64,000 bases of DNA from Spirochaetota bacterium (GCA_022703505.1 JAKLDN010000008.1:158422-222421), one strand, 5' to 3'. Shown: positions 26,432-56,336, counted from the stretch's first letter. Numbers and translations: made by a program. Notes: generated from the letters alone by a model not told the origin.

Positions 26432-26440
26432 GGAGGCCTC

Positions 26441-34790: not shown

Positions 34791-35556
34791 GCCCACCTCG
34801 GGTTCGGAACCGGGACGGCTGCGGGGATCCGCCGGACCTTTCGGGTTTCGACCTCGATGTCCCAGAAGACCCGGGCGTGGGGATACGCCCCGTTCACGAA
34901 GCGCCCCCGCCGGCCGGGCCGGTTGTGGATGTGGCCGAAGAGATGTAGCCGGGGCTCCCGGTCCCGGACCAGGTCCCGGAGGGCGGGGATGCCGTGGATC
35001 AGCTCCGCCCGGCCGTCCAGGATCCCCGCGGGCGGGGAATGGGTGACCAGGATCGATTTCCGGTCCACCCGGGGCGCCAGGGCCCGGACCTCCCGGTCCA
35101 GGTCCGCCTCGCTCCGGTGGTCGACGGTCCACCGGTACCCGACGAAGTTCCAGGTCCCGAACTCGATCCTCCGTCCGTGCAGGTTCACGATCCCTCCTCC
35201 ATCCGCCCAGGGGGTGTCGTCGTGGTTCCCGGGCACCAGGAAGACGGGCTTTCCGGCCCCGCCCAGGACCTCCCGGAACCGGCCTTCCAGGATGGACAGC
35301 CCCCTCAGGTTAATCTCGTTGAAGCGCCGGCCTACGGTTTGCCAGGGCGACGGGTCCTCGGGATCCGCCAGGTCCTCCAGAAGGTCGTCCGGGTCCGCCC
35401 CCAGTTCCCGGACCAGGAACTCGTCGGGCAGGCGGATGTCGTCCAGGAGGTCCCCCGCCAGGACCCCCGCGTCCCAGGGACCCTCCGCCAATGTCCGGGC
35501 GAAGAGACGGTACGCCGGCATGAGGGCGTGGAGATCCGAGGAGAAGAGGAGCCTCA
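34787..35556 (-). CDS. Calcineurin-like metallophosphoesterase
   Basis: SDLH, GDLLD, GNHD, HSPP, GHIH metallophosphoesterase motifs. GGAGGGGG RBS. Confidence 0.75.
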
Positions 35557-36723
35557 TTCCGCCCCCTCCAGTTCCTCGAGGCCCTCGTCCAGGACCGCGC
35601 GGAAATGGGCGGCCAGGGCGGCCTTCCGGCGCTCCAGGAGTTCCTCGTCCGAGGCCGAGGGGAGGAAGGGCGCGGGCGCCCCGGACCGGGGCGGGGCGAG
35701 CATGAGGTCCTCGACCAGCCGGGAGAGGTCCGCGGGGTCGAACCGGGCCTCCAGGTACCGGTGGTTTCCGGAGGGATCCGCCGTCCAGCGCCCGGAGCCT
35801 TCCCTGTCCACCTCGAGCCGGCCCGGCGCGGAGAGCCGGAAATACCGGGTCCCCGTCACGGCGGCCAGGACAGCGGCCTGGTCGTAGCAGGCCCAGTCCA
35901 GGCCCACCGTGTGGAGGCGGTAGGCGGTGCGCACGGGGTTCCCCCGGGGCGCCTCGCGGCAGAACCGGGCGCCCGCCTGGAGGGAGCCCCCGAGTTCGCC
36001 GTCGCAGATCACGACGGGGGTCGGCCATCCGGCTAGGACGCGCCGGGCGGCCCCGGGATCCTGCCGGAGATTGTACTCGATCCCCTCGGGGATCCGGCCG
36101 CACATGAGGACGAGCTTCCGCACCGAACGGCGGACCAGGTCCGGCCCGGACAGGGGGCTGGTTCCGTCGGGGCCCGAGTCGAGGAGGGCCGCCAGGTTGA
36201 GCATCGGGCCGATGCCCACGAGTACCGCGTCCGCCCGATCGCGGCCCGCCAGGAGCCGCCGGATAAGGCCGACCGCCTCCGGGTCCGCTTCGTGCGCTGT
36301 TCCGGCCTGCGCGGGCGCGGCGGCCGCCTCAGGATTGTTACCGGGCACGGCTTCAGCCTGCGCGGACACGGCGGCCGGTTCCGGACCGCCCGGGGCCGCG
36401 ACGCCCTCCCCGGGTCCGTAGGCCTCCGCCAGGAAGCGGATGTACGAGAGGTCCGCGTGCTCGTCCAGGAAGCCCGGCCGGCCGAAGGCGCCGACGGGTA
36501 TGTCCGGTCGGCCGTACCAGCGGTTGACCGCCCGGATTGCGGGGACGCCCCAGCGTGCGGAGGTGCAGTAGGTCATCCCAAGGATCTCCGCCAGGCCTCG
36601 ATCCGCAAGGGCGTGGAGCACCGCCAGGGCCCCCGCGTCGTCCACGTCCTCGTTCAAGTCCGTGTCCAGGATCAGGGGTAGCGGCCGTCGCCGTCTTCGC
36701 GGGAGGGGAGGAAGCTCAGCCAA
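35554..36723 (-). CDS. Inosine-uridine-preferring nucleoside hydrolase-family protein
   Basis: LILDTDLNEDVDDAGAL (DxDxxxDD) N-terminal motif. Confidence 0.8.
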   Translation of the reverse strand: MAELPPLPRRRRRPLPLILDTDLNEDVDDAGALAVLHALADRGLAEILGMTYCTSARWGVPAIRAVNRWYGRPDIPVGAFGRPGFLDEHADLSYIRFLAEAYGPGEGVAAPGGPEPAAVSAQAEAVPGNNPEAAAAPAQAGTAHEADPEAVGLIRRLLAGRDRADAVLVGIGPMLNLAALLDSGPDGTSPLSGPDLVRRSVRKLVLMCGRIPEGIEYNLRQDPGAARRVLAGWPTPVVICDGELGGSLQAGARFCREAPRGNPVRTAYRLHTVGLDWACYDQAAVLAAVTGTRYFRLSAPGRLEVDREGSGRWTADPSGNHRYLEARFDPADLSRLVEDLMLAPPRSGAPAPFLPSASDEELLERRKAALAAHFRAVLDEGLEELEGAE

Positions 36724-37735
36724 GGAACACCTCCCCTTCGTCGGTCACCTTCAGGAGCGTCTTGCAGGACTTGCAGCGCCCCCGCATGGGCCGGGCCGAC
36801 CGGGTTCGGGCCCCGCAGATGGGGCACTTGAAGATCTTCGGGAACTCAGGCTCCTCCAGTCCGTCCGAACTCCTTTTCAGGAGCGCCATGGCTTCCGCCT
36901 CGGTATCGACGATCTCGAAGTACTGGTGGAATAATCCCAGAAGCAGAAATACTTCATCGATCTTCGGGGGGATTCCGAAGAGGACCAGGCGGCCGTCCCG
37001 GAGCTTGACCGTCTTCAGGATACCGGTCAGGTGCCCGATTCCCGACCCTGGCCATTGAAGCCCGGAGAAGTCCAGGGCCAGACGGATGAACTCGGCCTCC
37101 ACGCGCCGCAGGACCAGGCCGTAAAACCAAGTCCCGGCCTGCCGGTCCAGGTAGCCCGAGTACCGAATGACCAGGCCGCCGGGGAGGTCGGACAGAGGTT
37201 CGAAGACGGCCTTGTTACCGTTGCCGTCCTCCTCTTCCCGGGGAAGGTCCGGCGCCGGAGCGCCGGGCGAGCGGTCCGCGGCCGCGGCCGCTAGGATCGC
37301 GGCGGCTTCCGTAGGATCCCGGGCTGGAGGGAAAAGCGTCTCGAGCCTGGAAATCCGGAGGCTTTCCCGGATGCAGGGCGAAGGCAGGACGACCACAGTT
37401 CCGCCCCGGGGATGGACCGCCTTCAGAGCAGCCGTAAACAGATGGATCGCGTGATCGCCGCAGGACTCGACCCTCCAGGTATCGAACACGACACCGTGCG
37501 TGTCCAGATCCTTCATATACCGCAGAAGCAGGTCAACGGCCCAACCATCATTCCCTCGATCAAACTTGCCGTCGACCTCCACGAGCAGGGTGCCCTCCGG
37601 CGTACCGGGCACTCGGTCCTTCAAGGGTTGGGCTGTCAGGCCGAGCTTGCCGGTTGGGTCCGTCCGTCGTTCCGGGGATGGAGTCATGAAGGGGCTCCAG
37701 GATTTTCCATCGTTTTCCTTGGGTTCCATATTCAC
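36716..37735 (-). CDS. STAS-domain (anti-sigma-antagonist-like) protein with C-terminal zinc ribbon
   Basis: Two STAS-like segments, then CPICG...CKSC. Start could be 37735 or the later Met at 37687. Confidence 0.55.
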   Translation of the reverse strand: MNMEPKENDGKSWSPFMTPSPERRTDPTGKLGLTAQPLKDRVPGTPEGTLLVEVDGKFDRGNDGWAVDLLLRYMKDLDTHGVVFDTWRVESCGDHAIHLFTAALKAVHPRGGTVVVLPSPCIRESLRISRLETLFPPARDPTEAAAILAAAAADRSPGAPAPDLPREEEDGNGNKAVFEPLSDLPGGLVIRYSGYLDRQAGTWFYGLVLRRVEAEFIRLALDFSGLQWPGSGIGHLTGILKTVKLRDGRLVLFGIPPKIDEVFLLLGLFHQYFEIVDTEAEAMALLKRSSDGLEEPEFPKIFKCPICGARTRSARPMRGRCKSCKTLLKVTDEGEVFLG

Positions 37736-37785
37736 AGGGTGCTGACAAAGGCGATGGCGCCTTTGTCAGCACCCTGCCAGGAAGA

Positions 37786-37827
37786 GTATAGCACGGGGCG
37801 GAGGCGTTCCCGGATCCCCGCTTCGGC
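37786..37827. repeat. Perfect 19-bp stem / 4-nt loop hairpin (CAGGGTGCTGACAAAGGCG-ATGG-CGCCTTTGTCAGCACCCTG)
   Basis: Directly visible inverted repeat in the divergent intergenic region. Immediately 5' of the STAS-gene ATG on the minus strand. Confidence 0.7.
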
Positions 37828-43094: not shown

Positions 43095-44168
43095 GTGGAA
43101 CCCATCCGCGTCGGGATCATCGGCTTCGGGATGATGGGCCGCATGCAGGCCCTCGGCTGCTTCGGCGCCCTGGCCGACGATTTCCGCCTGGCCGCGGTCT
43201 GCGACGACCACACTCCCCACCTGGCCGCCGCCCGGGAGCTCTTCGGTCCGGACGTCCGGTACTTCCCGGATTACCGGCGCATGCTGGACGAGTGCGACTT
43301 CGACCTGGCCGCGGTGGTCACCCCGGACTTCCTGCACGAGGAGATGGCGACGGCCTGCCTGCGGGCGGGGAGACACCTGCGCCTGGAGAAGCCCATGGCC
43401 CTGGACCCCGGAGGCTGTGCCCGGGTGATCGAGGCGGCCGAAAAGGCGGGAACCGTCGTCCAGATAGGCCTCGAGCTCCGCTACGCGGAGCTGGTGGGCC
43501 GGATGCGGGAGCGGCGGGAGGTCCTGGGGCGGCTCAAAATGCTCTGGTGCCACGAGTTCCGCCACCCCTTCCTGGCCAAGCCCGGGAGCGTGCCCGACTG
43601 GATCGTCCGCCGGGAGTACTCCGGCGGAACCCTCATAGAGAAGTGCTGCCACCACTTCGACCTCTTCAACGACTTCGCCGGGGCCCGCCCGGCTTCCGTG
43701 TACGCCGTCGGGGACCACGAGGTCCAGTACGCCCACACGGACGTCCTGGACAACGCCTTCGCGACCGTGGAGTACGAGAACGGGACGCGGGCGAACCTGT
43801 CCCTGTGCATGTTCGCCCCCCCCGCGGAGGGACGGCCGGGCCTGTCCACCCTGGACTTCGGCCTCCTGGGCGACTCGGGGCGGATGGAGCTGAGGGGCGA
43901 CGAACTGTCCGTCTGGGACCGGGGGCGCCCCGGTGTGGAGTCGTACCGGCACGAGCGGGTCGACCTCGTGGGCCACGACGACGAGATCGTCCCCTCCCTG
44001 CGGGACTTGGTCCGGTGCATTCGAACGTGCGGAACCCCGGACGCGGACCTCCGTGCGGGCCTTTCCAGCGTGATGACCGCCTGGGCCGCGGAAGAGTCCG
44101 TCCGCCTGGGCCGCCCCGTGGAGATGCGGGAGGTGGAGGAGCGCTTCGAGGTGGACTACCCGGCGTAG
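43095..44168 (+). CDS. Gfo/Idh/MocA-family oxidoreductase
   Basis: GTG start. IRVGIIGFGMMG Rossmann motif and EKP block. Confidence 0.8.
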   Translation: MEPIRVGIIGFGMMGRMQALGCFGALADDFRLAAVCDDHTPHLAAARELFGPDVRYFPDYRRMLDECDFDLAAVVTPDFLHEEMATACLRAGRHLRLEKPMALDPGGCARVIEAAEKAGTVVQIGLELRYAELVGRMRERREVLGRLKMLWCHEFRHPFLAKPGSVPDWIVRREYSGGTLIEKCCHHFDLFNDFAGARPASVYAVGDHEVQYAHTDVLDNAFATVEYENGTRANLSLCMFAPPAEGRPGLSTLDFGLLGDSGRMELRGDELSVWDRGRPGVESYRHERVDLVGHDDEIVPSLRDLVRCIRTCGTPDADLRAGLSSVMTAWAAEESVRLGRPVEMREVEERFEVDYPA

Positions 44169-44179: not shown

Positions 44180-44989
44180 CTACAGGACGGCGCCCCGGGA
44201 GACCATCAGGGCCAGGACGGCCAGGGGCGCGTCCAGCAGGGCGTGGGCTCCCATCAGGTACGGGAGGACCGTGGGCCGCCGGTCGATCACCCAGCCCGTC
44301 CAGAGGGCGAAGGGCAGGAATCGGAAGGCGAGCCATAAGGCGTACAGCGGGTCGGGACGGAAGGACAGGAAGAGGTGCTGGAGGGAGAGGACGGCCCCCA
44401 CGGCCAGGATCGTCCTCCATCGGCCCCATCCGGAGGCCCGCAGCCGGGGCGCCGCGTACCCCCAGTACAGAGGGAGCTCCGCGAGGCCCTGGCCCGCGGG
44501 CACGAGCAGGAACAGGGGATAGACCGCGGCTTCCGGAAGGGGACCGAAGAGCAGGTTGTTCGGGATCGAGGAGCCGCCCCAGAACGCCTCGGCGAGCAGG
44601 AAGCCCGGAACCATCGAGAGCACCCCGGAGACCACCATGAAACCGGCCAGCCAGGCCAAGTCGCCCTTCCAGGTCGATCCCCGGGCGCAATACAGATCCC
44701 GCATCCGGAGGCCCTCCCGACGGGCCGCGGCGGCCAGGAATCCGAGGGAGGCCGCGTTGGCCGCGCTCAGGTACCAGAGCCACCCGGCCGACGCCCGTCC
44801 GAAGGGATCGACGACGCCCCGGGCCGCGAGCATCCCGGCGGCAGCCAGGAGAAGGGCGAAGGGCACGAAGCAACGCAGGCCCATGGCAAGCCAGGCCCGG
44901 CGGAACAAGGACTCCCCCGAGACGCGGACGGCGATCGATGCCCGGGAATCGGGAAGATCCCTCGCCGCCTCTCCGCCGGTATCCCGCAT
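44180..44989 (-). CDS. CPBP/Abi-family intramembrane metalloprotease
   Basis: Polytopic membrane protein with LAEAFW and HLFLSF-type conserved Glu/His patches. Confidence 0.55.
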   Translation of the reverse strand: MRDTGGEAARDLPDSRASIAVRVSGESLFRRAWLAMGLRCFVPFALLLAAAGMLAARGVVDPFGRASAGWLWYLSAANAASLGFLAAAARREGLRMRDLYCARGSTWKGDLAWLAGFMVVSGVLSMVPGFLLAEAFWGGSSIPNNLLFGPLPEAAVYPLFLLVPAGQGLAELPLYWGYAAPRLRASGWGRWRTILAVGAVLSLQHLFLSFRPDPLYALWLAFRFLPFALWTGWVIDRRPTVLPYLMGAHALLDAPLAVLALMVSRGAVL

Positions 44990-45043
44990 GTCGCCTCCTT
45001 CCCGGGTTCGGCCCGGCCGTTCGCTGTCCAGTGCATCCTGAGG

Positions 45044-45250
45044 GTCGACGAAGCACGCGGCGCCTCGTTACCTTACAAACTACTGGAAATCGCCGAAGGG
45101 CGATGCCCTTCGGCGTCGAGCATATCCGGCGGATCGACGAAGCGCGAAGCGCTTCGTTGCCTTCAAACTACTGGAAATCGCCGAAGGGCGATGCCCTTCG
45201 GCGCCAAGCATATCCGGCGGATCGACGAAGCGCGAAGCGCTTCGTTGCCT
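45044..45250. repeat. About 2.4 tandem copies of an 88-bp unit, each with two hairpins
   Basis: Units start near 45044, 45132 and 45220. Each contains CGACGAAGCGC-gaa-GCGCTTCGTTG and CGCCGAAGGGC-gat-GCCCTTCGGCG stem-loops. Copy 1 is diverged. Confidence 0.7.
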
Positions 45251-45292
45251 TGAAAAAACGACGGCGTACCCTACGGTACGCCGTCGTTTTTT
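45251..45292. terminator. Bidirectional rho-independent terminator
   Basis: AAAAAACGACGGCGTACC-cta-CGGTACGCCGTCGTTTTTT. Perfect 13-bp stem flanked by an A6 and a T6 run. Confidence 0.85.
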
Positions 45293-45295
45293 CAA

Positions 45296-45340
45296 GCTCC
45301 CCCGCGGTGACTCGAACACCGGACCCAGTGGTTAACAGGC
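45296..45340 (-). other. tRNA 3'-end-like fragment (T-arm + acceptor 3' strand); candidate att site at the island boundary
   Basis: Minus strand reads GGGTC-CGGTG-TTCGAGT-CACCG-CGGGGGA-G. The upstream 50 nt are AT-rich with no D-arm, anticodon arm or matching 5' acceptor. The terminator lies directly 3' of it. Confidence 0.5.
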
Positions 45341-45566
45341 GAACTTTCTATTACTTTGGATTATCACCGCCTGTCACTATTTATAATTATAGCAAGTATT
45401 TGCTTAGTTTTCAATAGTATGCGTTAGCAAGCGTTTTTATGGTTTTTTTAGATTTTTGCGCCCAATTTGCGCCCAGTTATTTATTGCTAACTATGCAATA
45501 GAAGAGGAAGCTCACCAAGCATTTTTATAGCCTTCGTCCTCAGTATGTACATGCTTCACCTCCTTA

Positions 45567-46823
45567 TCAAGCTCTTTTAAAAGCTCCCTGCATCCGCTCA
45601 ATTTCAGGCCTACGGATGCCCAGAGCCTTCGCCCGCACCTGCCACCTCGAGACCACCCCGCGTATCGCCTCCATGATCGAGAGTGCCTCGGGCTTTGAGA
45701 GCCTGAAGTACTGCGCGACCGATAGGGCCAAGTCGAAATCCAACGAATTGTCATGCTCGTCGATGGCGAGGGAGAGGCCCGCCGAATCAGGCGAGGGATT
45801 GATGTCGTAGGCGGGAGAAAGCCACCAGCCCTTCGCATCGAGGAGGAAGCCATGATTCCGAAGATGGTCGTCGGTGTTGGAAACGGCGATGGAAAACACG
45901 ATGCGTTTCCAGAGCTCCCGCAGATCGGCGTCGGGCCGGGATCCGGAGCGCATGATGAACTCCGCGAGCTCGAGGTAGCTTGCGCCGGCCTCGGCGTCAT
46001 CGCCGTCCTTGCGGCCGAGCAAGGTCATGGCGGAGGCGAAATGGATACGTCCCTCTCCTTGGCGATCGAAGCGCTTCGTCATGAAGGTGGAGCCTCGCTT
46101 CGAGAAGGAGTCTAGCCTGCATTCGCTCATCTCGATGCCAGCTGCGCAGGCGAGGTCGGCGACGAGCATCTCCCAAGCGCCTGAGTCGCGTTCATCATCC
46201 TTGCCCGGGAACTTGGCTATCCAGAGTTCGCCCTTCTCGTCCACTACGCTAGCCTTGGGCCTAGCGCCTCCGAGCGAGGAGCCGGGCGCAATCAACATGG
46301 CGAGCCAGGGGTCGAGCTTGTCGTCATCCTCTTCATGTTCCGCGAGGAAACTCGCATACTCGAGATCGCGTAGCGTTGACCACGGCGGGGCTGCCATAGC
46401 CGTATCCAAGCTCTGATAGGCTTCGTTGCCTGGTATCTTAAACCGCAAGGCGCCCAAACGATTCTTATCATGAACGCCGAGGAGGTACTCCGCTTCTCCG
46501 AGCCTTCGCGGCGTCCGCCCTTCCTTCCTTGCCAAGATGGCCTCGCGCCGCCTCATGAGGACGCGGCCCCAACGATCGGGAGAGGAATCCAGGAACAGGC
46601 CGAAATTTGGCTTACCCACCCCGGCATACTGGGGTCCCTTATAGAATCGCAGATCAGGGTCGAGCGTTCGGTTGTCGTCGCGGCGAAGCCATGCCGCGTC
46701 GTACTCGAAGGAGAAGACTTCCTTGCCGCGCGGCGCTTGGACGGACAACGTGCCGAGATGGGCAACGGATCCAAGGCCGAGCCAATCGGCATACACTTCG
46801 ATAGTGCGCCCGGCGTCGCTCAT
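45567..46823 (-). CDS. hipA: HipA-family Ser/Thr kinase toxin
   Basis: 418 aa. SNTDDHLRNHGF catalytic loop. Confidence 0.85.
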   Translation of the reverse strand: MSDAGRTIEVYADWLGLGSVAHLGTLSVQAPRGKEVFSFEYDAAWLRRDDNRTLDPDLRFYKGPQYAGVGKPNFGLFLDSSPDRWGRVLMRRREAILARKEGRTPRRLGEAEYLLGVHDKNRLGALRFKIPGNEAYQSLDTAMAAPPWSTLRDLEYASFLAEHEEDDDKLDPWLAMLIAPGSSLGGARPKASVVDEKGELWIAKFPGKDDERDSGAWEMLVADLACAAGIEMSECRLDSFSKRGSTFMTKRFDRQGEGRIHFASAMTLLGRKDGDDAEAGASYLELAEFIMRSGSRPDADLRELWKRIVFSIAVSNTDDHLRNHGFLLDAKGWWLSPAYDINPSPDSAGLSLAIDEHDNSLDFDLALSVAQYFRLSKPEALSIMEAIRGVVSRWQVRAKALGIRRPEIERMQGAFKRA

Positions 46824-47149
46824 GATTCATCCTTCTTCGGCGACTTTCGGGCACGCCGTCGGCTAGGAAGCTTGGCGTCCTGGAGAGCGCGTCCGAGCTC
46901 GTCATCGAGCGCGACAGCCTCGAGGTCCTTCTCGAGTCCCAGCACGAACAAGACCTGTATCCAAGTAGCCATCGATACCGAGCCGGAGCCATTCTCGAGG
47001 GCGCTCAGGGTCTGTCGGCTGATGCCCGCCCGTTCGGCAACCATCTCGGCGCTGAGATCGCGTCGGAGCCGCGCCAGTCGGATATTCTCGCCGAGCGTTT
47101 CGAGGCTACGTTGGACACTGGGCAATAGGACCGGGAGTTTCTTAGGCAT
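46820..47149 (-). CDS. hipB: HipB-like XRE-family HTH antitoxin
   Basis: LSAEMVAERAGISRQTLSALENG HTH. 4-nt overlap with hipA. Confidence 0.75.
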   Translation of the reverse strand: MPKKLPVLLPSVQRSLETLGENIRLARLRRDLSAEMVAERAGISRQTLSALENGSGSVSMATWIQVLFVLGLEKDLEAVALDDELGRALQDAKLPSRRRARKSPKKDES

Positions 47150-47353
47150 AACGTATAATATAATAGGCATAAAAGGTATATCTGTCAAATTATTACGACG
47201 TAAAACTGAATAACACAACTCACATGCAAAGGTGGTTCTTACAAAATGTCGAGAATCGGACTACTTTGATGTTCCTGACACGGCCACTTCATTGACCATA
47301 CCCTAGAAGGTATCTCCATGGTTTATACCTTGATGGGTAAATGGTAAGAAAGG

Positions 47354-47779
47354 CTATTGAACGATAGGCGTCTTCCCGTCCTTAACCTTGCTAGTCGTCT
47401 TAGCTGCAATCCGCGAGGCGGAGCCCCGGGACTTAGAAACTCCACGAGCACTGGAGGGTTGAGTAGCATAGGTCATAATCCGTTCACGCTGAATGAAGCC
47501 ATGGTCCTTCCGGAGGACTTCCAGAAAACGGCAAGCAGCGCCATTCGGGACGTTCCGACCAGCTTCCCAGGCCTCAACGGTCTTCTTAGCGACTCCAAGA
47601 ACTTGGGCGAAAACAGTCTGGGAAAGCCCAAGAGCGAGCCGGAGTGCCTTAACCGCATGGGCATCATAGGTGGGAAGCGGTGCTATCTTGATCGCTGTAG
47701 TCTTGAGCTTAAGCTTGCCCTCTTGATGAGCCTTGACCTCAGAGAGGCCACGCATGATGCTCTCGAACGCTTCGCCCAT
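47354..47779 (-). CDS. HigA-like HTH antitoxin
   Basis: LRLALGLSQTVFAQVLGVAKKTVEAWEAG HTH. Sits immediately downstream of the toxin. Confidence 0.7.
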   Translation of the reverse strand: MGEAFESIMRGLSEVKAHQEGKLKLKTTAIKIAPLPTYDAHAVKALRLALGLSQTVFAQVLGVAKKTVEAWEAGRNVPNGAACRFLEVLRKDHGFIQRERIMTYATQPSSARGVSKSRGSASRIAAKTTSKVKDGKTPIVQ

Positions 47780-47780
47780 A

Positions 47781-48109
47781 TCAGTCTCCTAACAGTCCCT
47801 TTACGTACGTCTTGATCGCCTGCTTCTCTTCGGAGCTCAGGTTGTCCTTCTCATCCTTACCGAAAACAGTGATGAGATAGATCAGGCCGGACGCCCGCAT
47901 ATCGAGATAGATCGTCCGCAGGCTCCCGGATTCCCCCTACCTTCGCGCGCCCAGCGCAGCTTACGCACACCACCTGTTCCCTGGATGACCGGAGCGATCT
48001 CCGGATGCTCGAGGAGGTAGTTCTGGAGCTCGCGGAGGTCATCCTCCGTCATCCCGAGGGCCTTCCATCGGGATTGGAACTCCTTGGTCTCTACAAAGGT
48101 TCTCGTCAT
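47781..48109 (-). pseudogene. RelE/HigB-family toxin disrupted by a -1 frameshift in a G5 homopolymer
   Basis: N-terminal MTRTFVETKEFQSRWKAL...GVRKLRWAREGRG in one frame. C-terminal ESGSLRTIYLDMRASGLIYLITVFGKDEKDNLS in another. Adding one G at about 47935 restores a 108-aa toxin. Confidence 0.7.
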
Positions 48110-48302
48110 CCAGTATACCAGACCACCCTATCTAATAGGGTACTTAGAATGAATATAGCTCTGTGAGAGACTCTCGTCTAGAAGAGGGAAGGATATGAAA
48201 GAGGAAACTCGATAAAGCGGTTTGACGCGCTCGAGCGAGTACTAGCAGGTACAGAATGTCTCTCCCCCATATCGCGTTGCCCTGAAACAGCCTGTGGGTT
48301 AA

Positions 48303-48338
48303 GACTAAAAAGCCCGCCCCATAAGGGAGCGGGCCAAG
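48303..48338 (-). terminator. Intrinsic terminator after the 327-aa gene
   Basis: Minus strand GGCCCGCTCCC-ttat-GGGGCGGGC followed by TTTTTAG. Confidence 0.55.
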
Positions 48339-48340
48339 GG

Positions 48341-49324
48341 TCATTCCAGGAAGCTATAACGGGACTTCATGTAGCGCGCCCAGGGTTCCAGCTCCGGGTG
48401 CCGGTCAGTCGGGACATACCGGAAGAGCTGTTCAGTCGGGATGTACCTGAACTCGTCGGGCATGAGGAGCAGTGTCGGCCACAGCTCGTAGAGGTCGCGG
48501 AAGAACTTACGGTAATGCGGCGAAGTGATGGACCGAAGTTCACGATTAGCTCCGACGGCAATGTGGACCACGATGACGTTATCGACCTCGGGGATGCCGA
48601 CCTCCAGGATGCGGGATGCCAGGAGTTGATGCCGGGCAAGCTGATACATCGGCTCATAGAGCAGGTATTCGATTCGCGGTACAACCTCCAGATTGAACGG
48701 TGTAAAGGGACCATAGAAGATCTCGCGGTAGGTATCCACGCGATCCGAGCCATCGGTCCTAAACCTCTTGTACTGGGACGAATAACTCTCGGTAAACTTA
48801 ACCTCGCACAGCATGAAGACCTTGCGATCATCCATGGTCTCAAAGCACATCGCAGCGTCGATGGAGGTTGAGCCAGCACCGCGAATCCGGTCGGTACCGA
48901 CATGAGATTCCTCCCCTAGGTAGTTGATGTCGCCCTGCCACTCGAAGGCGATGAACGCATCCTCCTCCACAGGGAGCATTCGTTTGATCTCGGGGAATTG
49001 CGGACGAAGGAAGTCAGCCAGAGCATCCGGGCGATTGCGGAACGGGAAGAGCGTGTTGACGCAGAATATCTGGCTGGAACAGGTATGGTTGGTTGGCAAG
49101 CCAGGAAGCGCGGCTCCATGCCAGACGATGCCAAGGCGCTCGAAGGTAGCCAGGGCATCGTCCCGGATCTCATGGAACAAGTTGTAGGCGGCGAGCTCAA
49201 GCGGGAAGCAGAATGGGTACATACGGCTCCGGTATAAGCCCGGAGCCCTGGCCTCGCGCGGGAGAGCCTTGCTGGTCAGCTTCCACTCCAACTGCATCTT
49301 CTTGGCGACGGAGAGGTAATTCAC
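48341..49324 (-). CDS. Hypothetical protein, possible PD-(D/E)xK-type nuclease
   Basis: 327 aa. DDRKVFMLCEVKF resembles a D...E-x-K patch. Sits downstream of the RecT-like gene. Confidence 0.35.
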   Translation of the reverse strand: MNYLSVAKKMQLEWKLTSKALPREARAPGLYRSRMYPFCFPLELAAYNLFHEIRDDALATFERLGIVWHGAALPGLPTNHTCSSQIFCVNTLFPFRNRPDALADFLRPQFPEIKRMLPVEEDAFIAFEWQGDINYLGEESHVGTDRIRGAGSTSIDAAMCFETMDDRKVFMLCEVKFTESYSSQYKRFRTDGSDRVDTYREIFYGPFTPFNLEVVPRIEYLLYEPMYQLARHQLLASRILEVGIPEVDNVIVVHIAVGANRELRSITSPHYRKFFRDLYELWPTLLLMPDEFRYIPTEQLFRYVPTDRHPELEPWARYMKSRYSFLE

Positions 49325-49338
49325 GATAAAGTCCTCCC

Positions 49339-50253
49339 CTACGCCGTAGCGGTCATGCTGGCAACGTTCTTGAGCACCTTCCGCGCGTAGGCGACCATGC
49401 GTTCCACGCCATCGGCGCTGTTCGACTGACGGGCCTTGGCCAGAATCCAGTCCTGATGCTTAGGCGTGAAGGCATCCTCGTTGTCCTCGAGGATCGAACG
49501 GAGTTCGCCCTGGAGACGATTCATCTTGGTGATCTCGTCTTCGGGTTCTGGCTCGGGCTCTACCTCGGGTAGAGGCTTGGTCGCTGGCATGAAGGGCTTT
49601 GGGTGGTCCTCAACAGTGGTAGTATTCATCGCAGGCCGTTCCGACATGGTCGGAAGAGGTACAGGAGTGACCGGCTTATCCTGGATACCAACGCTTTCTG
49701 CATCGGGGAGTTCGGCCGGATCGTAGGGCATGCCGCCGAGCTCCGAGGGAAAAGCCAGGCGGAAGCCTTGGGAAATCGCGACCTTCTTTAACTGAAACTT
49801 GGGCATCTTGGTCCAGAAAGACGTGGGTTGGCCATCGCGCTTCCGCTGGACTGCTTCCTTCCAGTAGACCTCATGTACGAAGGGTGAGTGCCAGTCCTTG
49901 CGGTGGATCTCGACAAGAGCCTTCATATCCTCGCCCTGGCCTTCGACCCAGGCTCGCCAGCCGTCGAGCTGGCTGGTGCGCTCGGCGCGGTCAAGGTAAG
50001 TCTGGTAGCCTACAACGATTGACATGCGCCGGTACTCGCCTTCGCCGTAGACCGCCACGTGGATCTCTCTTTTAAACGGGTTGAGGTGGAAGGCCTGAGC
50101 GACCTCGATGAATTGGAGCTTCTCCTCCTGGGTGAGCTGGGTCGCGAGGCCGAAGGCGGTGAGGTAGTCGAGCAGGGTCTGCTTCTGGACCTCGTTGGTA
50201 GGAAGGGGCGGCCCCTCGCGAGGCTGGGTGGGGAACGGTGATACTGTGGACAT
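49339..50253 (-). CDS. RecT/Bet-family single-strand annealing protein
   Basis: VVGYQTYLDRAERT and WTKMPKFQLKKVAI blocks parallel E. coli RecT (IIGYRGMIDLARRSG, W..MAKKTAIRR). TAGGAGGT RBS. Confidence 0.65.
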   Translation of the reverse strand: MSTVSPFPTQPREGPPLPTNEVQKQTLLDYLTAFGLATQLTQEEKLQFIEVAQAFHLNPFKREIHVAVYGEGEYRRMSIVVGYQTYLDRAERTSQLDGWRAWVEGQGEDMKALVEIHRKDWHSPFVHEVYWKEAVQRKRDGQPTSFWTKMPKFQLKKVAISQGFRLAFPSELGGMPYDPAELPDAESVGIQDKPVTPVPLPTMSERPAMNTTTVEDHPKPFMPATKPLPEVEPEPEPEDEITKMNRLQGELRSILEDNEDAFTPKHQDWILAKARQSNSADGVERMVAYARKVLKNVASMTATA

Positions 50254-50410
50254 GGGAGACCTCCTAGGGGATGGATCTCCAATATCAGTAGTATCGCCAT
50301 ATACGACCAGGAAGTAGAAATGTCCCAACCGAAGCCCAAGCTGGATGTTCATTGACAGCACAATTGGCGCGGTGTACTGTCCATAAGATACTTAACTGGA
50401 GGTAAAAACG

Positions 50411-50611
50411 ATGGCAGATGTATCTACGTCAGGATTCAATGGAACGACAGACATCCCAACGCAAGTCTTCGAAAGCTTCCTTTCGGAGCTGAAGAGCACC
50501 GGAGCATCGAGCGAGATGATCGAAAGACTTCGCAAGACGTTGCTCGAGGATCACATCTTCACAGAAGGCGCTCTAAAGACCGCCGTTCTAGGTGAGGAGA
50601 CGTCGCTATGA
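50411..50611 (+). CDS. Small 66-aa protein translationally coupled to the ATPase
   Basis: GGAGGT RBS. Stop overlaps the ATPase start (ATGA). Confidence 0.5.
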   Translation: MADVSTSGFNGTTDIPTQVFESFLSELKSTGASSEMIERLRKTLLEDHIFTEGALKTAVLGEETSL

Positions 50612-53061
50612 TCCGCGTAGACTCCATTACGATCAAAGAGTTCCGCGGAATACGTGATCTGACGCTCAATCTAAAAGGCAAGAACTATGCGGTCTGCGGT
50701 CCTAATGGGACTGGAAAAAGTGGCGTAGTGGATGCCTTGGAGTTCGCGCTGACTGGTAACGTCTCCCGCCTCTCTGGCAGAGGGAAAGGTGAAGTATCCC
50801 TCAAAGCCCATGGTCCCCATGTTGATCAAAGAAATGCCCCTGACAAGGCTCGAGTAACCGTGATACTAACTATCCCTAGCTTGAATAAGTCAGTCACAAT
50901 CGAACGAAGTGTAAAGGCACCTGCATCTCCTGTAATAACTCCCAATGAGCCAGACGTGCTCGCAGTTCTTCAACACGTCACGAGTCACCCCGAAATCGTA
51001 CTCTCTCGTCGAGAGCTGATTAACTACGTGTTAGCAACTCCTGGTGATCGCGCGCAGGAAGTACAAGCATTGCTCCATTTGGATCGAGTTGAGGAGGTTC
51101 GTGGCACGCTTCTCAAGATCGCTAATGCCTGTGATAAGCAGGTAGCTCCGCAGGCAAGCGCCGCTATATACGCCCGCGATAACCTAATGCGAGCGCTGGA
51201 AGTAACAGAGCTTACGAGTGCAACCATTCTCGAGGCAGCAAACAAACGGCGAGTTATGCTTGGGTTGATAGCACTCACCGAGCTAACTGAATCCGCTTCA
51301 TTAAAAGATGGGATGTCACAGTCCGAAGCAGCTCAATCTTCTGGTGTTCCTAAGGCGCAAACTCTGGCGGACATCCAAGTAACCCGCGAATCATTGGTAG
51401 AGCTTGGAAACGACTCGACTAAAGCACTAATAAGTGGTGTTGTAGCGGACCTCGGCGCCTTGACTGGTGACTCGGCTTTAGAAGCAAGTGTGAAGCTAGA
51501 ATCATTCTACGCAATGGGAATGGGCTTCATCGACAGGGGTTCATGCCCATTCTGTGATGATGAGTGGGATTTGGACGAACTGAGGCTTCATGTCCAGGGG
51601 AAGCTTGATCACCTCAAGCAAGTAGCACTTAGGCGCAGAGTCATTGAGGATAAGCTTATCCCCTTGATCTCGCTTCTTAGGAAACTAGCTAGCAACCTGG
51701 ACTCATTGATTAGTCAAGCGCAGCTTGTGAAGGCACCGGATGTGATGGCAAGCGTAAGCGGCTACAGCGTATATTGCAGAGAAGCATCGAGCAAATTGAC
51801 TACGATACTACCTCTCGCGGATACCATCAAGCAACTCATGGATTTGTCCGCTGTCCCCGATGGTACGATTAATGCGATCACATCGCTTGAAACACTAGTC
51901 TCAGGTCTTCCTGAGCCCACTAAACAGGAAGGGGCCCGAGAATGGCTCACCATTGCACAAGAGCGTCTTCAGGTATGGAGGGAATCGGTTCGACTGCATG
52001 AACTCCTGAAGGAACGAGCCAAGAGCGCTCGAAGGGTATATGACACGTATGTATCGGCGAGTGACAAGAAACTTGTTGGACTGTATGCGGCTGTTGAAAG
52101 GGACTTCTCGAGTCTGTACCGCTTCGCCAATCGAGACGATGAGGACAAGTTCAATGCGAAGATGGTGCCTTCCATGGGGAAGCTTGGATTCGATGTAGAC
52201 TTCTATGGGCGTGGGTTCTTCCCGCCCGGCGCTTATCATAGTGAGGGCCATCAGGACAGCATGGGACTTTGCCTGTACCTAGCACTAATGCGACACATCC
52301 AGGGAGTAGGATTTACATTCGCGGTGCTTGACGACGTGCTCATGTCGGTTGACGCTGGTCATCGCCGGGAAGTGTGCACGCTTCTAAAGACAGAATTTCC
52401 TGACACTCAGTTCGTCCTGACAACGCACGATCCAATCTGGCTTCGACATATGAAGACTGAGGGACTTCTTGCAAGCCGCTCATCAGTGCTATTCAGAAAC
52501 TGGTGCGTAGACGCGGGGCCCTCTCAATGGGAGGAGGAGGATGTCTGGAGTGAGATCGATGGACACCTCGAATTAAATGACATCCGAGCGGCTGCTGCCC
52601 TACTAAGGCATTACCTCGAGTATGTGTCGGCCGAACTGTGCCAACGACTTCGGGCATCAGTAGAGTATCGAGGCGATGCTCAATATCAGCTAGGGGAACT
52701 ACTCCCACCTGCAATTACTCAAATGAGAACGCTTATCAAGCGCGCTAAAGAAGCTGCAAGTTCATGGGATCAAAGAGAGGCTCTTGGGGCATTGTCAGCG
52801 CGCGAAGTAAGGTTCGCGGATTTGGTGAAGGCCACTAATTCCGATGCATGGCAAGTGAATACAGCAGTACACTATAATTCTTGGGATAGCCTTGGCAAGA
52901 ATGATTTCGCTCCGGTCGCTAATGCATACCGAGAATTGCTAGGTGGCTTTACCTGCTCGGGATGTGGAGAGTACCTTCGGGTATCGCCAGACAGAGAGAC
53001 GGCTGAATCGCTTCGCTGTGATTGTGGTGAAACAAATATTAACCTAAAGAAGAAGTCCTGA
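50608..53061 (+). CDS. SMC/Rad50-like ABC ATPase with zinc hook (RloC-like) and C-terminal Zn-ribbon domain
   Basis: Walker A GPNGTGKS. Coiled-coil insert carrying CPFC. Walker B/D-loop VLDDVLMSVD. H-loop TTHD. C-terminal CSGCG...CDCG. Confidence 0.7.
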   Translation: MIRVDSITIKEFRGIRDLTLNLKGKNYAVCGPNGTGKSGVVDALEFALTGNVSRLSGRGKGEVSLKAHGPHVDQRNAPDKARVTVILTIPSLNKSVTIERSVKAPASPVITPNEPDVLAVLQHVTSHPEIVLSRRELINYVLATPGDRAQEVQALLHLDRVEEVRGTLLKIANACDKQVAPQASAAIYARDNLMRALEVTELTSATILEAANKRRVMLGLIALTELTESASLKDGMSQSEAAQSSGVPKAQTLADIQVTRESLVELGNDSTKALISGVVADLGALTGDSALEASVKLESFYAMGMGFIDRGSCPFCDDEWDLDELRLHVQGKLDHLKQVALRRRVIEDKLIPLISLLRKLASNLDSLISQAQLVKAPDVMASVSGYSVYCREASSKLTTILPLADTIKQLMDLSAVPDGTINAITSLETLVSGLPEPTKQEGAREWLTIAQERLQVWRESVRLHELLKERAKSARRVYDTYVSASDKKLVGLYAAVERDFSSLYRFANRDDEDKFNAKMVPSMGKLGFDVDFYGRGFFPPGAYHSEGHQDSMGLCLYLALMRHIQGVGFTFAVLDDVLMSVDAGHRREVCTLLKTEFPDTQFVLTTHDPIWLRHMKTEGLLASRSSVLFRNWCVDAGPSQWEEEDVWSEIDGHLELNDIRAAAALLRHYLEYVSAELCQRLRASVEYRGDAQYQLGELLPPAITQMRTLIKRAKEAASSWDQREALGALSAREVRFADLVKATNSDAWQVNTAVHYNSWDSLGKNDFAPVANAYRELLGGFTCSGCGEYLRVSPDRETAESLRCDCGETNINLKKKS

Positions 53062-53240
53062 TGTCGCTTCTAGCTTTCGAAAGATAGAAGGCACTTTCTC
53101 CTCCTCGGGCTAGGTTTGTTAATGCCATCCTTAGACATGATAGCATTATACTATTGGACGGGATCTCCTACAGTATAGAGAGGGATTTATCAGCGCAGGG
53201 AATATGGCGGAAAACCAAAACCTACAATCAAGCATCATGT

Positions 53241-54146
53241 CTAAGGCACAATGCTGAACAGGAAGTCAGCCATCTGCTCAAGAACGGCTATGCTCTTCAC
53301 CACCTCATCCTTCGTGATCATGATAGATCGACCGAGATCGCCGCCCTTCCCCCCGGTCTTCCTGATATAATCCTCGTCTATCACTCCCATCGTGTGAGCT
53401 AACAGGTGGCGGTTCTGAAACTGCACCTGGATAAAGCTCCACTCGCCTTGGCCGATGCACGAAGGGAAGCCCCTACCGAAAAGTCTGGATATTCGATCGT
53501 TAGCGCCTGAGAGATTCTGGAAAGATATCTTAGGATCGTGCTTGCGACAGAGCTCTCTACCAAAGCCATCGAATGAGGCTACCGCATCCTCTAGAGCATT
53601 CTCGGTAAGCTTCTTTGCGATGTCGCTGCTTGAAGTATCTGCCAAGGTAAGCATCGTGGTAACAATCCTGAAGTTATCGCGAAGTATCTGGAGAGAGTTA
53701 TGAGTCCCACAATCAGGGCAATAGCCGAATGCTCCATAGATCGCATACTCGAGGGTGCATGCAGAACAGGTCGCTCTATGTTCCAGGGTCTCCTCTGAGT
53801 AGTACGCAATTGGTGTAGGACTCCCCTTCACCGTAATCCCAATGGATAACATGGCATGAGGGTCGGGCTTCCTCTCCATCCTCTTGAGTTGTGAGAGTAA
53901 TTGGCTTGACAACTCATGCAACGCGATAGACTGAGCATACTTGATTTGTTGCTTCGTCCAGAATTCAGATTGAGGACCGGTATAGTTGCAGTATGGGCAA
54001 TGACAGGGCACTTCTCCCGGAAGACCGGTCCCGAATTTGATCTTGAAGTACTTCTCGCATTGAGGGCACTCTCGACCGATGTATCCCTCTCCATCTGGCG
54101 ATATCTTTATTGCATACTCCATCTCGACCTTCCAGGTTCCCCTCAA
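53241..54146 (-). CDS. Multi-zinc-ribbon hypothetical protein
   Basis: CPQCEKYF, CHCPYCNY, CSAC, CPDCG cysteine pairs. 301 aa. Confidence 0.5.
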   Translation of the reverse strand: MRGTWKVEMEYAIKISPDGEGYIGRECPQCEKYFKIKFGTGLPGEVPCHCPYCNYTGPQSEFWTKQQIKYAQSIALHELSSQLLSQLKRMERKPDPHAMLSIGITVKGSPTPIAYYSEETLEHRATCSACTLEYAIYGAFGYCPDCGTHNSLQILRDNFRIVTTMLTLADTSSSDIAKKLTENALEDAVASFDGFGRELCRKHDPKISFQNLSGANDRISRLFGRGFPSCIGQGEWSFIQVQFQNRHLLAHTMGVIDEDYIRKTGGKGGDLGRSIMITKDEVVKSIAVLEQMADFLFSIVP

Positions 54147-54158
54147 TATCTTAAGCGC

Positions 54159-54494
54159 TTAGAACACAATGTCTCCAGGATTCTCCTTCGAACTCGACAT
54201 CAGAGCCGTCGTAGCTAGCCTTTGAAGCTGGAGAACACCCTTCGAACCCACAGTTAAGCGCTCAATCTCAGCCAAATCCTTATTCTTGGTCGCGAGTCTC
54301 AGTTCCCTGGTATGTTCCCGTATGTGGCCGAGAAGCAGCTTCACGGTGAACTGGTTGACTTGCCAGACAAGATCGCTAGATATCACGTCCGCCCGTACCG
54401 TAGCCATCCCTGACTCATCCAAGCTTCTTCGAGCAGAATCAAGAGATGAGGCAAGCCTCTTCGCAAGCTGCATCCTTGCAGACATAGCCATCAT
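54159..54494 (-). CDS. Hypothetical 111-aa protein
   Basis: Co-directional and tightly spaced with the flanking genes. No recognisable motif. Confidence 0.4.
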   Translation of the reverse strand: MMAMSARMQLAKRLASSLDSARRSLDESGMATVRADVISSDLVWQVNQFTVKLLLGHIREHTRELRLATKNKDLAEIERLTVGSKGVLQLQRLATTALMSSSKENPGDIVF

Positions 54495-54669
54495 TCACCT
54501 CACATTGTCATGAAAATCGCCCAAAGCTGTTCCCGTACATCCCAACCCGCCGCATCCCACTTCATCGCCCAGACGAAGTGCCCTTTGACCTTCGACGCGC
54601 AGGCCCGTGATCTACCCTTCTCTCGCAGGATTCGGTTAGTGTGGAACTCTAGGCAGTTCAGCACTGCTA

Positions 54670-55086
54670 CTATTTCCTCCTGAATTGGTGCCAGACAGTG
54701 ATGATGCTCTTAATAAGCCTTCTAGCCATCGTAGTCTTAGGGGCAAACAGCTTCTCGGCTACATCATTCTGGAGTCTTCGTATGCGTTCTATCTGCTTTC
54801 GAGTCATCTTGCTAGACCAAATGACATGCCCTTGGCGGATCCAGTAATGTGACTCGCAGGCAAGTTCCCAGTTTCCGACTGAAGGGAAAAGTGTTGGGAC
54901 ATCATCTTTAATCACTAAACGCCATTCTCCAGGACCTAATGGCGTCACAACTTCATTACCGCAACCACAAGGACACAAATGTATTGCTGTTGAAAATCTG
55001 TCTGACACGTAAAGTACACCTGGTTCAAGAGTGTCTGGGATAATATCTACTCGTTCGATGCGTAGGGAGACGGTTCTCTCGCTCAT
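54670..55086 (-). CDS. Cys-rich small protein (DUF6527-like) downstream of the E1-like gene
   Basis: 138 aa with HLCPCGCG. Start overlaps the E1-like stop by ATGA. Confidence 0.55.
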   Translation of the reverse strand: MSERTVSLRIERVDIIPDTLEPGVLYVSDRFSTAIHLCPCGCGNEVVTPLGPGEWRLVIKDDVPTLFPSVGNWELACESHYWIRQGHVIWSSKMTRKQIERIRRLQNDVAEKLFAPKTTMARRLIKSIITVWHQFRRK

Positions 55087-56336
55087 GAAGACTTCTTTGC
55101 GATATCATTCCACTCAAGAGTGTAGGCACTAAGGCATTCATGAGTAGCATCTTGATAATACCCAATATGTTTCTTCCACCTAATGACAGCTAAGGCCGCA
55201 TTGAGCGCATTAAGGTCCGCGACTTGGATGTTGGATCTGTATAGCTCATCTCCATCTTCGCCAAATGGAGCGGTCATGTTGAAGAAACTTTCTGCTTCCT
55301 TGGTCCCGGTTGACACTCTGCAAATACCAGAAATAGTTCTACTCTTCCCACCATCATTGTCGACTGCCTCAAGGCCCATTCCAACATCAATGAAGGGGAG
55401 CTCAAGACTGAAGAGCAGACTGGAAATCTCATTGCGGACAGACCCGGCATCGACAGCAACGAAAACAAACGCTAGGCTAGAAAGAAGATCACGGTGCGAA
55501 CCATCGACCTTGAGCTCATGAGCCTTGATTCCACGATGTATCCGACTATATGTAGCAGAAAGGTATTGTGCCTTCGTAGTAAGGCTTCCCTTAAAAGTTT
55601 CGAGGGATGCAGCGCCAGGCGTTCGGAAGGCGTTATGTTGGTGGAAGTGGTCATAGTCAAATAGGTGTATCTCTTCAACCGGAGTCTTCGCTACAAGGTC
55701 GAGGATATAAGAACCGGTTCCACCGAGGCCGATGATCCCGACTCGCATCCCTTTGAAAAGATGAGACAGATCCGAAAGTCCAGCCCTTGCAGTCGCGGTG
55801 TCCTCATAGACAAATGGTGTAGGTTCACGAACAGTACGTTCCGCCTTAAATGTTCGAGGCGTCATCGTATCATCGACACGCTTCGCTGGATAAGCTATAA
55901 GCTCCTCATAACGGTGAACTTTGTCCAGAAGAGTTGCGTAGACTCCTTCGGGTGGTTTCGACGATAGATGAAAACCAGCGACACCGCATGTCGGGATTGC
56001 AAAACCGGCGTTCTCGTTGGCGAGTATATTGATGGGGATGTCCGCAGAACTATGGGGCTTCTCACCCATGAAATAGAACGTATGGTCTTCCGCAGTAAGC
56101 TTGCCATCCCGGGTGACAACCTTGCAGGCGAGAACACTTAGACCGATGCTCCCATCAGCTTTGAGGTATGGGAAGTCTCGAAGAATCAGAAGAGAATCTA
56201 GTATCTCGGCATTATAGCCTTCGCTGAGTAGCTCAAGGAGCTCAGCATCAGGACTTGTCGGTTCGTTTGACATTAAAGGACATCCCCTTGTGAACCGCTG
56301 TCGACTCTCCCGGAACCAGGATACCGGTCTTTCCAT
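55083..56336 (-). CDS. E2-like/E1-like (ThiF/MoeB superfamily) fusion protein
   Basis: C-terminal half has GIIGLGGTGSYILDL nucleotide loop and DYDHFHQHNAFR. N-terminal 150 aa has an HPN-like EKPHSS...IPTCG His/Cys patch. True start probably the Met at 56273. Confidence 0.7.
   Translation of the reverse strand: MERPVSWFRESRQRFTRGCPLMSNEPTSPDAELLELLSEGYNAEILDSLLILRDFPYLKADGSIGLSVLACKVVTRDGKLTAEDHTFYFMGEKPHSSADIPINILANENAGFAIPTCGVAGFHLSSKPPEGVYATLLDKVHRYEELIAYPAKRVDDTMTPRTFKAERTVREPTPFVYEDTATARAGLSDLSHLFKGMRVGIIGLGGTGSYILDLVAKTPVEEIHLFDYDHFHQHNAFRTPGAASLETFKGSLTTKAQYLSATYSRIHRGIKAHELKVDGSHRDLLSSLAFVFVAVDAGSVRNEISSLLFSLELPFIDVGMGLEAVDNDGGKSRTISGICRVSTGTKEAESFFNMTAPFGEDGDELYRSNIQVADLNALNAALAVIRWKKHIGYYQDATHECLSAYTLEWNDIAKKSS

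Follow-up and report, generated by a model that had tools for sequence, protein, structure and literature searches.

REP and BIME elements usually occur in more than 100 copies dispersed across intergenic regions. BIME-2 and REP clusters of enterobacteria and pseudomonads are intergenic tandem arrays of two alternating GC-rich palindromes with linkers, lie next to a terminator, and form stable hairpins as RNA or ssDNA. Foldable, locally duplicated intergenic tandem units of 40–100 bp are also found among the MIRU VNTRs of mycobacteria and in boxB of the pneumococcal BOX element, at many loci per genome and with copy numbers that vary between strains. Tandem or back-up terminators, such as rrnB T1-T2, set a further GC-rich stem with a U-run behind a primary terminator downstream of strongly expressed RNA genes. 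In sopC of the F plasmid, 43-bp units that each contain an inverted repeat stand in tandem. In REPs one end of the stem carries an unpaired tag, GTAG or CGTC; stems have 6–9 bp and loops 4–5 nt, and the elements form head-head or tail-tail dimers, the head-to-tail arrangement being rare or negligible (PMC3733652).

Here we describe a tandem array whose units each contain two hairpins (A and B) separated by two linkers (L1 and L2), found in the window, that is, the whole 64-kb stretch of DNA that was analysed. The host is an uncultured member of Spirochaetia; MAGs assigned to Spirochaetia and to Spirochaetales are the source of identical proteins on deposit. Among known systems, BIME-2 clusters and tandem terminators resemble the array most in shape. 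It shares with the former the intergenic position next to a terminator, the two alternating palindromes with their linkers, and the stability of the hairpins, but it stands at one locus in 64 kb and at none of the related loci, lacks the tag, is built head-to-tail with 3-nt loops, has no RAYT in the ORFs scanned, and occupies one orthologous spacer in three lineages. As in tandem terminators, it stands right behind the main terminator of a tRNA gene and points the same way, hairpin A combines a GC-rich stem with a short run of U, and in one relative (L061) the terminator itself is duplicated here; unlike them, hairpin A falls just under the terminator discriminant and B far under it, and A is conserved in sequence, not in structure alone. 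MIRU and BOX units are multi-locus and strain-variable, whereas this array is known from one locus, with the same copy number in five assemblies. Palindrome-bearing direct repeats 43–44 bp apart also recall sopC, from which the array differs in being chromosomal, in having no partition genes nearby, in alternating two palindromes, and in having relatives with only one or two of them.

The locus

On the minus strand the order is a low-GC island, a 43-nt 3′ fragment of tRNA-Asn, the terminator, the array, a ribosome-binding site and a gene for a 269-aa membrane protein (Table 1). The array is non-coding and takes up the entire spacer from the intrinsic terminator of tRNA-Asn to the start of the next gene. 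We found 189 homologues of the 269-aa protein; PF02517 is touched by one of 26 homologues (E = 0.0015), and the protein may at most be a remote Rce1/CPBP-like relative.

GC content on the host side is mostly 0.63–0.74 and drops from about 0.71 to about 0.55 at 45300. Beyond this point lie the tRNA-Asn fragment, which is identical to the 3′ part of an intact tRNA-Asn in the relative L008, and island genes for HipA, a HipB-like protein, REase-ARP (a PD-(D/E)XK nuclease), RecT and a ResIII helicase, all in agreement with the position at an island junction given in the initial annotation. ARAGORN found no intact tRNA at the junction; the intact tRNA-Asn must lie past the window end. The end of the island carries a strong, near-consensus outward promoter that points at the array spacer.

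Table 1. Features of the array and its surroundings (positions counted from the first nucleotide of the window)
Feature	Position	Strand	Remarks
Gfo/Idh/MocA oxidoreductase gene	43095–44168	plus	codon-position GC
Conserved polytopic membrane protein gene, 269 aa	44180–44989	minus	codon-position GC 0.71/0.55/0.89; the array is its upstream spacer
Ribosome-binding site of the membrane-protein gene	44994–44999		AGGAGG
Degenerate gene-proximal partial unit	45016–45044	minus	remnant of linker L2 and 5′ arm of hairpin A; 19/29 identical
Unit 1, 89 nt, drifted	45045–45133	minus	hairpin B 45048–45068; hairpin A 45091–45115
Promoter-like site in L2 and hairpin B, unit 1/2	45119–45148	minus	TTCGCG (45148 to 45143), 18 nt, TATGCT (45124 to 45119)
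Unit 2, 88 nt	45134–45221	minus	hairpin B 45137–45157; hairpin A 45179–45203
Promoter-like site, second copy	45207–45236	minus	TTCGCG (45236 to 45231), 18 nt, TATGCT (45212 to 45207)
Unit 3, partial	45222–45255	minus	hairpin B 45225–45245; meets terminator at microhomology TTT(C/G)AAGGCAACGAAG
Bidirectional intrinsic terminator of the former tRNA-Asn gene	45249–45296		22-bp stem; A6/T6 flanks
tRNA-Asn(GUU) 3′ fragment, 43 nt	45296–45338	minus	anticodon loop to 3′ end; att core at island junction
Integrated lower-GC island	45339–64000		runs on past the window; GC 0.48–0.61 versus 0.61–0.77 on the host side

The tandem array

Tandem Repeats Finder reports 45045–45255 with period 88, 2.4 copies, 92% matches and a score of 357, by far the strongest tandem array in the window; the original count of about 2.4 copies of an 88-bp unit thus stands. 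The units are 88 or 89 bp long, with copy identities of 91% and 97%: unit 1 differs from unit 2 by seven mismatches and one 1-nt indel, and the partial unit 3 matches unit 2 at 33 of 34 positions. Beyond unit 1 the degenerate partial unit continues in register (it was matched against 45105–45133) and extends the array to some 2.7 units. The distal copies hardly differ from each other and the one nearest the gene has drifted, as the recent duplication originally proposed would have it. At its other end the array does adjoin the terminator directly, as had been claimed, the latter being a perfect inverted repeat with 22-nt arms, flanked by an A-run and, at its opposite end, by a T-run.

In the 5′ to 3′ direction of the minus strand, the unit consists of hairpin A followed by AUUU, linker L1 of 21 nt, hairpin B, and linker L2 of 19–21 nt; L1 and L2 are unrelated to each other in sequence. 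The array contains five hairpins in all, spaced 44–45 bp apart.

Hairpins and strand

Both GC-rich stem-loops that the initial annotation had assigned to each unit were folded and located. Hairpin A (CGCCGAAGGGC/GCCCTTCGGCG) has 11-nt arms that are 100% complementary and a 3-nt loop, and folds at −22.8 kcal/mol (z about −5 versus shuffles). Hairpin B (ACGAAGCGC-GAA-GCGCTTCGT) has a stem of 9 bp, or of 11 bp if one plus-strand G.U is counted, and folds at −14 to −18 kcal/mol, well under shuffles. The two are related palindromes. Their common core CGAAGNGCNNNGCNCTTCG occurs five times in 64 kb with up to two mismatches, each time in the array (45049, 45094, 45138, 45182 and 45226), versus a chance expectation of 0.66, and none of 100 shuffles reached five.

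One stem position varies among the copies, being G-C in A, C-G in B, U-A in hairpin B of L061 and U.G in hairpin B of L008; a second is C-G in A and A-U in B. The drifted hairpin B of unit 1 keeps its minus-strand pairing through G.U wobbles, with a fold of −15.5 kcal/mol on the minus strand versus −10.4 on the plus strand. In the drifted copies taken together, five events leave a minus-strand G.U that would read A.C on the plus strand; the opposite case is a single event, a minus-strand A.C in all B copies that the plus strand would pair as G.U. This pattern (5 versus 1, p about 0.1) weakly favours the minus strand. The covariation set comprised five sequences and 20 pairs, with 96% paired cells and one compensatory pair; 190 of 500 shuffles did as well, and helix A is invariant in the set.

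Termination and promoter-like sites

Terminators were scored with a hairpin/U-tail discriminant computed with modern energy parameters, which makes the values approximate. For the main terminator of the window the values are +43 (minus strand) and +40 (plus strand), and the sense-strand terminators of L008 and L061 score +23 and +10. Hairpin A is borderline on the minus strand of the window (−5.5) and reaches −9.1 in the sense direction of L008; on the plus strand of the window it scores −33, and hairpin B scores −52 (minus) and −41.5 (plus). Between the window and L008 the primary terminator is partly conserved, with compensatory substitutions and paired insertions. A covariance model of the element (R1) aligns the terminator and the B hairpin of unit 3 in the window as 'hairpin-linker-B', at 46 bits, and matches L061 at 33 bits; because the model puts the true terminator in the A slot in both, hairpin A occupies a terminator-equivalent position.

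The promoter-like sites in L2 are weak, scoring 7/12 in a relaxed sigma-70 scan, and their two TATGCT hexamers are the only −10-like hexamers (A2, T6) from the terminator to the ATG. They are predicted to act as promoters. The organism uses sigma-70-type promoters, as at its tRNA-Arg (TTGACA-18-TAGTAT). Between the element and the gene the relatives have −10 sequences of their own, TATACT in L008 and TATAAT in L061. On the plus strand, no promoter-like site passes a consensus promoter scan.

Relatives and conservation

Metagenome loci were gathered through homologues of the 269-aa protein. The 2.4-copy array and the island junction are 100% identical in five assemblies of one species (the window, L002, L003, L065 and L066); L005 and L006, which represent one strain, have a hybrid proximal unit. 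Short-read contigs from other samples (L001 and L004–L007) end within the array.

Two more distant loci carry parts of the element. L008, whose protein is 61% identical to that of the window, has an intact tRNA-Asn without island, then a terminator, a single A-L1-B, the −10 sequence and the homologous gene, in the same position and orientation. The L061 contig (protein 58% identical to the window, 82% to L008) begins at the terminator, which is followed by hairpin B alone, a second copy of the terminator, the −10 sequence and the gene. Hairpin B is degenerate in L008, while L061 is without A-L1 and has a C-G to U-A compensatory pair in its B. No module is common to all three lineages, which argues against an indispensable function. 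Neither the element nor an upstream tRNA-Asn was present in 35 metagenome loci and seven further contigs that encode homologues; a leader tied to the protein family was rejected on this ground. The element thus belongs to the tRNA-Asn spacer of one small clade, not to the protein family or the island.

The array is host DNA. With the module in the tRNA-Asn spacer of the relatives and L008 free of the island, the array is ancestral and older than the island. One proposal of the initial annotation, a remnant of recombination at the attachment site, fails on this point and on sequence: local alignments of the unit with tRNA-Asn score 11 and 13 in the two orientations, versus shuffle means of 13.7 and 13.4, and derivation from tRNA-Asn or the att core was ruled out by such alignments.

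The conservation of the array modules is unexpectedly strong. At third codon positions of the flanking gene, identity amounts to 47% for the window and L008, 45% for the window and L061, and 71% for L008 and L061; at 45–47% neutral sites are saturated. By alignment count, the window and L008 agree at about 83% of positions over A-L1 and the 5′ arm of B, where 22 of 22 stem bases of A are unchanged, and hairpin B is identical at 29 of 31 positions between the window and L061. Since this exceeds the identity of saturated sites, the tRNA-adjacent block is either constrained or, perhaps by recombination close to a hot spot of integration, younger than the neighbouring gene.

Searches for further copies and known families

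There is no other copy of the unit in the sequence examined. Pattern search, nhmmer --max and the covariance model yielded none in the 64-kb window, of which about 45 kb is host DNA of the source organism, and none was found in more than 40 loci of the flanking gene family. A hairpin-plus-linker pattern that fits both the window and L008 had no hits in one genome each from 185,579 species. The bare A hairpin had 13 scattered hits in these genomes, about one per genome and in unrelated phyla, a number close to the chance yield of a GC-rich palindrome; most are unrelated hairpins. One of the 13, at an unrelated locus of a Spirochaetaceae MAG (L048), is an A-type hairpin with the same GGC...GAT flanks, and in a Clostridia MAG (L056) the identical 11-bp stem lies within the 54-bp terminal inverted repeats of a MITE-like element of about 330 bp. 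Viral contigs gave no pattern hits for the element besides one AT-rich chance hit, the plasmid and phage collections gave no BLAST match to it, and covariance model R1 found nothing beyond the known copies and the hairpin-pattern loci.

Among known RNA families, Rfam contains no match for the array, and only tRNA-Arg passes the threshold in the window. With E up to 10 over 44850–45450 the hits are driven by the terminator and lie far under threshold, so the Rfam/Infernal scan suggested with the initial annotation does not place the array in any family. Its other suggestion, a REP/BIME-like element, holds for the shape and not for the rest. GTAG is 11 nt from the B stem, inside L1, and CGTC overlaps the 3′ arm of B, so that neither is a tag at the stem; stems of 9–11 bp are combined with loops of 3 nt; the units are direct head-to-tail repeats, not alternating ones, by Tandem Repeats Finder and a repeat search, and form no inverted dimers; no dispersal was seen in the sequence examined; and no Y1/RAYT transposase was found by Pfam and NCBIfam among the 50 ORFs of the window that were scanned.

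Several other candidates were considered and, apart from a HipB operator, rejected. A CRISPR array has identical 24–48-bp direct repeats with unique spacers of similar length between them; its spacers would not themselves be repeated as L1 and L2 are, and here two palindromes alternate. The plus-strand linkers have GGA motifs as in a CsrA sponge, and the GGA of the first linker is not conserved in L008. Against tandem hairpins of guanidine-II (mini-ykkC) type ahead of a membrane-protein gene, the loops here are not ACGR and Rfam gives no hit. The second linker resembles the HipB operator TATCC...GGATA, with a spacing of 3 versus 8 nt, and is host DNA that exists without the island. Small ORFs are rejected in that the 88-nt unit is no multiple of three and the ORFs crossing it have non-coding codon-position GC.

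Alternative explanations

The array may be a functionless, slippage-prone palindrome cluster of VNTR-like kind, its 88-bp duplication neutral and recent. Hairpins near the terminator would duplicate, decay and vanish through replication slippage and template switching, and perfect palindromes would be kept by intrastrand template-switch 'correction', not by selection. We consider this rather improbable. L008 and L061 differ in hairpin sets and terminators at 71% third-codon identity, the terminator has been duplicated at the same place in L061, the gene-proximal copy of the window is decaying, covariation is not above shuffles, and homologues of the gene occur in more than 40 other contexts without the element, all of which such a cluster would explain; it would not explain why A-L1 (83%) and B (29/31) lie far above the saturated sites (45–47%) or why L1 is conserved, a single-stranded segment that template switching cannot protect, and the array is identical in five assemblies and so not hypervariable. 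Selection at the sequence level is the essence of another reading, in which A-L1-B would be a clade-specific small RNA gene or structured RNA element at the tRNA-Asn locus, under purifying selection and with its dosage doubled by the duplication. In the uncultured Spirochaetia it might act as a small RNA or be processed as a trailer or leader. On the minus strand it would prolong the tRNA-Asn transcript or form a leader, and on the plus strand it would end at the bidirectional terminator; conserved unpaired bases of the linkers would offer a surface for interactions. The island, which now aims a strong promoter at the spacer, might have prompted the duplication. This reading would agree with the conservation that A, L1 and B retain at saturated divergence, with the stable hairpins, and with one compensatory pair plus one G.U intermediate at the same stem position, and a plus-strand RNA would have the classic layout of hairpins and then a terminator. 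We nevertheless judge a functional RNA, offered by the initial annotation as a small structured RNA family, unlikely, given that there is no Rfam family at E up to 10, that the plus strand has no promoter-like site by the consensus scan and is disfavoured by the G.U pattern, that on the minus strand the sites are weak and the element starts right after a very strong terminator, and that no single module is present in all of the three lineages that carry the element, with covariation matched by 190 of 500 shuffles.

Selfish repeats typically pair a patchy presence with high conservation, and the array could be a low-copy palindromic repeat of this sort (REP/BIME-like or MITE-derived) that is clustered here and has its other copies elsewhere in the genome. 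Its two alternating palindromes and two linker types resemble a BIME-2 layout, similar or identical hairpins stand at the unrelated L048 locus and in the MITE-like element of L056, and the host DNA examined is about 45 kb. The absence of a second copy in the 64-kb window, the zero hits of the linker pattern and 13 scattered hits of the bare hairpin in 185,579 species genomes, the missing GTAG/CGTC tag, the 3-nt loops, 9–11-bp stems and head-to-tail units, the lack of Y1/RAYT among 50 scanned ORFs, and plasmid and phage collections without a match make us think it quite unlikely. A DNA-level role, in which the five palindromes CGAAG-N9-CTTCG would be operators for a dimeric regulator of the downstream gene or a sopC-like centromere, would agree with the regular 44–45-bp spacing and with the sequence conservation of the A stem. 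It is very unlikely all the same: the variation of one stem position as G-C, C-G, U-A and U.G is what a folded hairpin, not a protein contact, predicts, no ParA/ParB or dedicated regulator gene is adjacent, and the relatives have one or two palindromes. Least credible, to the point that we give it almost no weight, is the proposal of decayed att copies or island arm sites left by site-specific recombination at tRNA-Asn; the array is within 50 bp of the att core but on its host side, the module follows an intact, island-free tRNA-Asn in L008 and in part occurs in L061, and its similarity to tRNA-Asn is no greater than that of shuffles.

Proposed role

We tentatively favour a reading of the array as locus-bound cis 'punctuation', which we hold to be a serious possibility though somewhat short of an even one. 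Termination or pausing, promoter activity and a leader role are here predicted from sequence features. Hairpin A would be a near-threshold secondary terminator or pause site behind the strong terminator, which would now face the former tRNA-Asn site and the strong outward promoter of the island. The membrane-protein gene would be transcribed from a weak promoter in L2; with a start some 7 nt past TATGCT, the 5′ end of the RNA would fall at the base of hairpin A, and A-L1-B would form a structured 5′ leader that opens with a hairpin. The duplication would double all these functions. In the lineage of the window an 88-bp segment was duplicated in place, probably by replication slippage or unequal crossing-over at TTT(G/C)AAGGCAACGAAG or between the related palindromes.

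Some observations tell against cis punctuation. Hairpin A is just under the terminator threshold and B far under it, and the promoter-like sites of L2 are weak. A leader role cannot be ancestral, since in L008 the likely promoter is found downstream of A-L1-B. The stem of A is conserved in sequence beyond the need of a mere terminator, whereas the primary terminator has changed by compensation. The patchy module content fits a dispensable or selfish element at least equally well.

Significance

The stakes of this finding are modest. The array is a locus-specific example of a general kind, tandemly duplicated intergenic stem-loop modules, and gives no sign of a new mechanism. For annotation it is a caution that a palindromic tandem repeat is not automatically a REP element or an att scar. 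We know of no regulatory RNAs in the uncultured anaerobic spirochaetes of this group; if the array were a functional RNA, it would be a lineage-specific small RNA or leader in these organisms. If instead the preferred cis-punctuation reading is true, the locus would be a clean natural case in which reusable hairpin modules make up the 'punctuation' that separates a tRNA gene from the next gene and in which local duplication has reshaped it, and would show that a repeat beside an island junction need have no relation to the island.

Island in tRNA-Asn and predicted RNA at its end

The island integrated in tRNA-Asn is of lower GC, and carries genes for HipA, a HipB-like protein, RecT, a nuclease and a helicase (table). 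Its portion within the window contains neither an integrase nor an intact tRNA-Asn, and the island therefore extends beyond position 64000. The extreme end of the island is the site of a predicted sigma-70-like promoter, which faces outward, through the tRNA-Asn 3′ fragment and into the 22-bp terminator. Transcription from it would yield a chimeric RNA of ~130 nt, which has no match in Rfam and whose predicted fold is strong (-63 kcal/mol, z -6.1).

Window positions of the island and other features
Feature	Position	Details
Island	45339-64000	
HipA	45567-46823	island gene
HipB-like HTH protein	46820-47218	island gene
REase-ARP/PD-(D/E)XK nuclease	48341-49324	island gene
RecT	49339-50361	island gene
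ResIII helicase	56636-59575	island gene
Near-consensus sigma-70 promoter, predicted	45386-45414, minus strand	TTGAAA-17-TGnTATAAT, 11/12
Chimeric RNA, predicted	45246-45380, minus strand	
tRNA-Arg(CCU)	8562-8740	clear promoter TTGACA-18-TAGTAT, single ordinary terminator
NAD/ADP-ribose cluster	23000-37800	

The window also holds a dense cluster of genes related to NAD/ADP-ribose, encoding SIR2, a VWA+Macro protein, an NrtR-type Nudix regulator, an ADP-ribosylglycohydrolase fused to a MavL macrodomain, a cNMP-binding membrane protein, an Apyc1-like metallo-beta-lactamase, Band7, GNAT, a second ADP-ribosylglycohydrolase, a DSPc phosphatase, a nucleoside hydrolase, a STAS protein and a Metallophos protein, the last identified by gene calling at the identical loci L002/L003. 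In L008, the relative lacking the island, synteny is retained for part of this cluster.

The array, its hairpins and other loci

No hairpin array is found at tRNA-Arg(CCU); the array is therefore not general to tRNA trailers of the source genome. The relative L061 (Logan SRR21896034 contig, positions 1-110) carries the 3′ half of the tRNA-side terminator (GCGTCGGAAGACGCGCTTTTCTTTTA) twice, the duplicate lying 73 bp downstream and hairpin B between the two copies. Local duplication has in this way occurred a second time, independently, within the same spacer as the array.

Short-read contigs from five other samples (L001, L004-L007) end at or inside the array, that of L001 stopping before it, 23 nt upstream of the ATG of the membrane-protein gene; the array locus will often be lost in automated MAG assemblies.

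An 11-bp stem identical to that of hairpin A, with loop ATT, occurs in an uncultured Clostridia MAG (L056, CAKUFI010000010.1, 6103-6435). There it lies inside 54-nt terminal inverted repeats (91% complementary) with 225 bp between them, and the whole is therefore a MITE-like element of ~330 bp. This element is probably unrelated to the array; as an example, it illustrates that the hairpin A stem can form part of a mobile-looking element.
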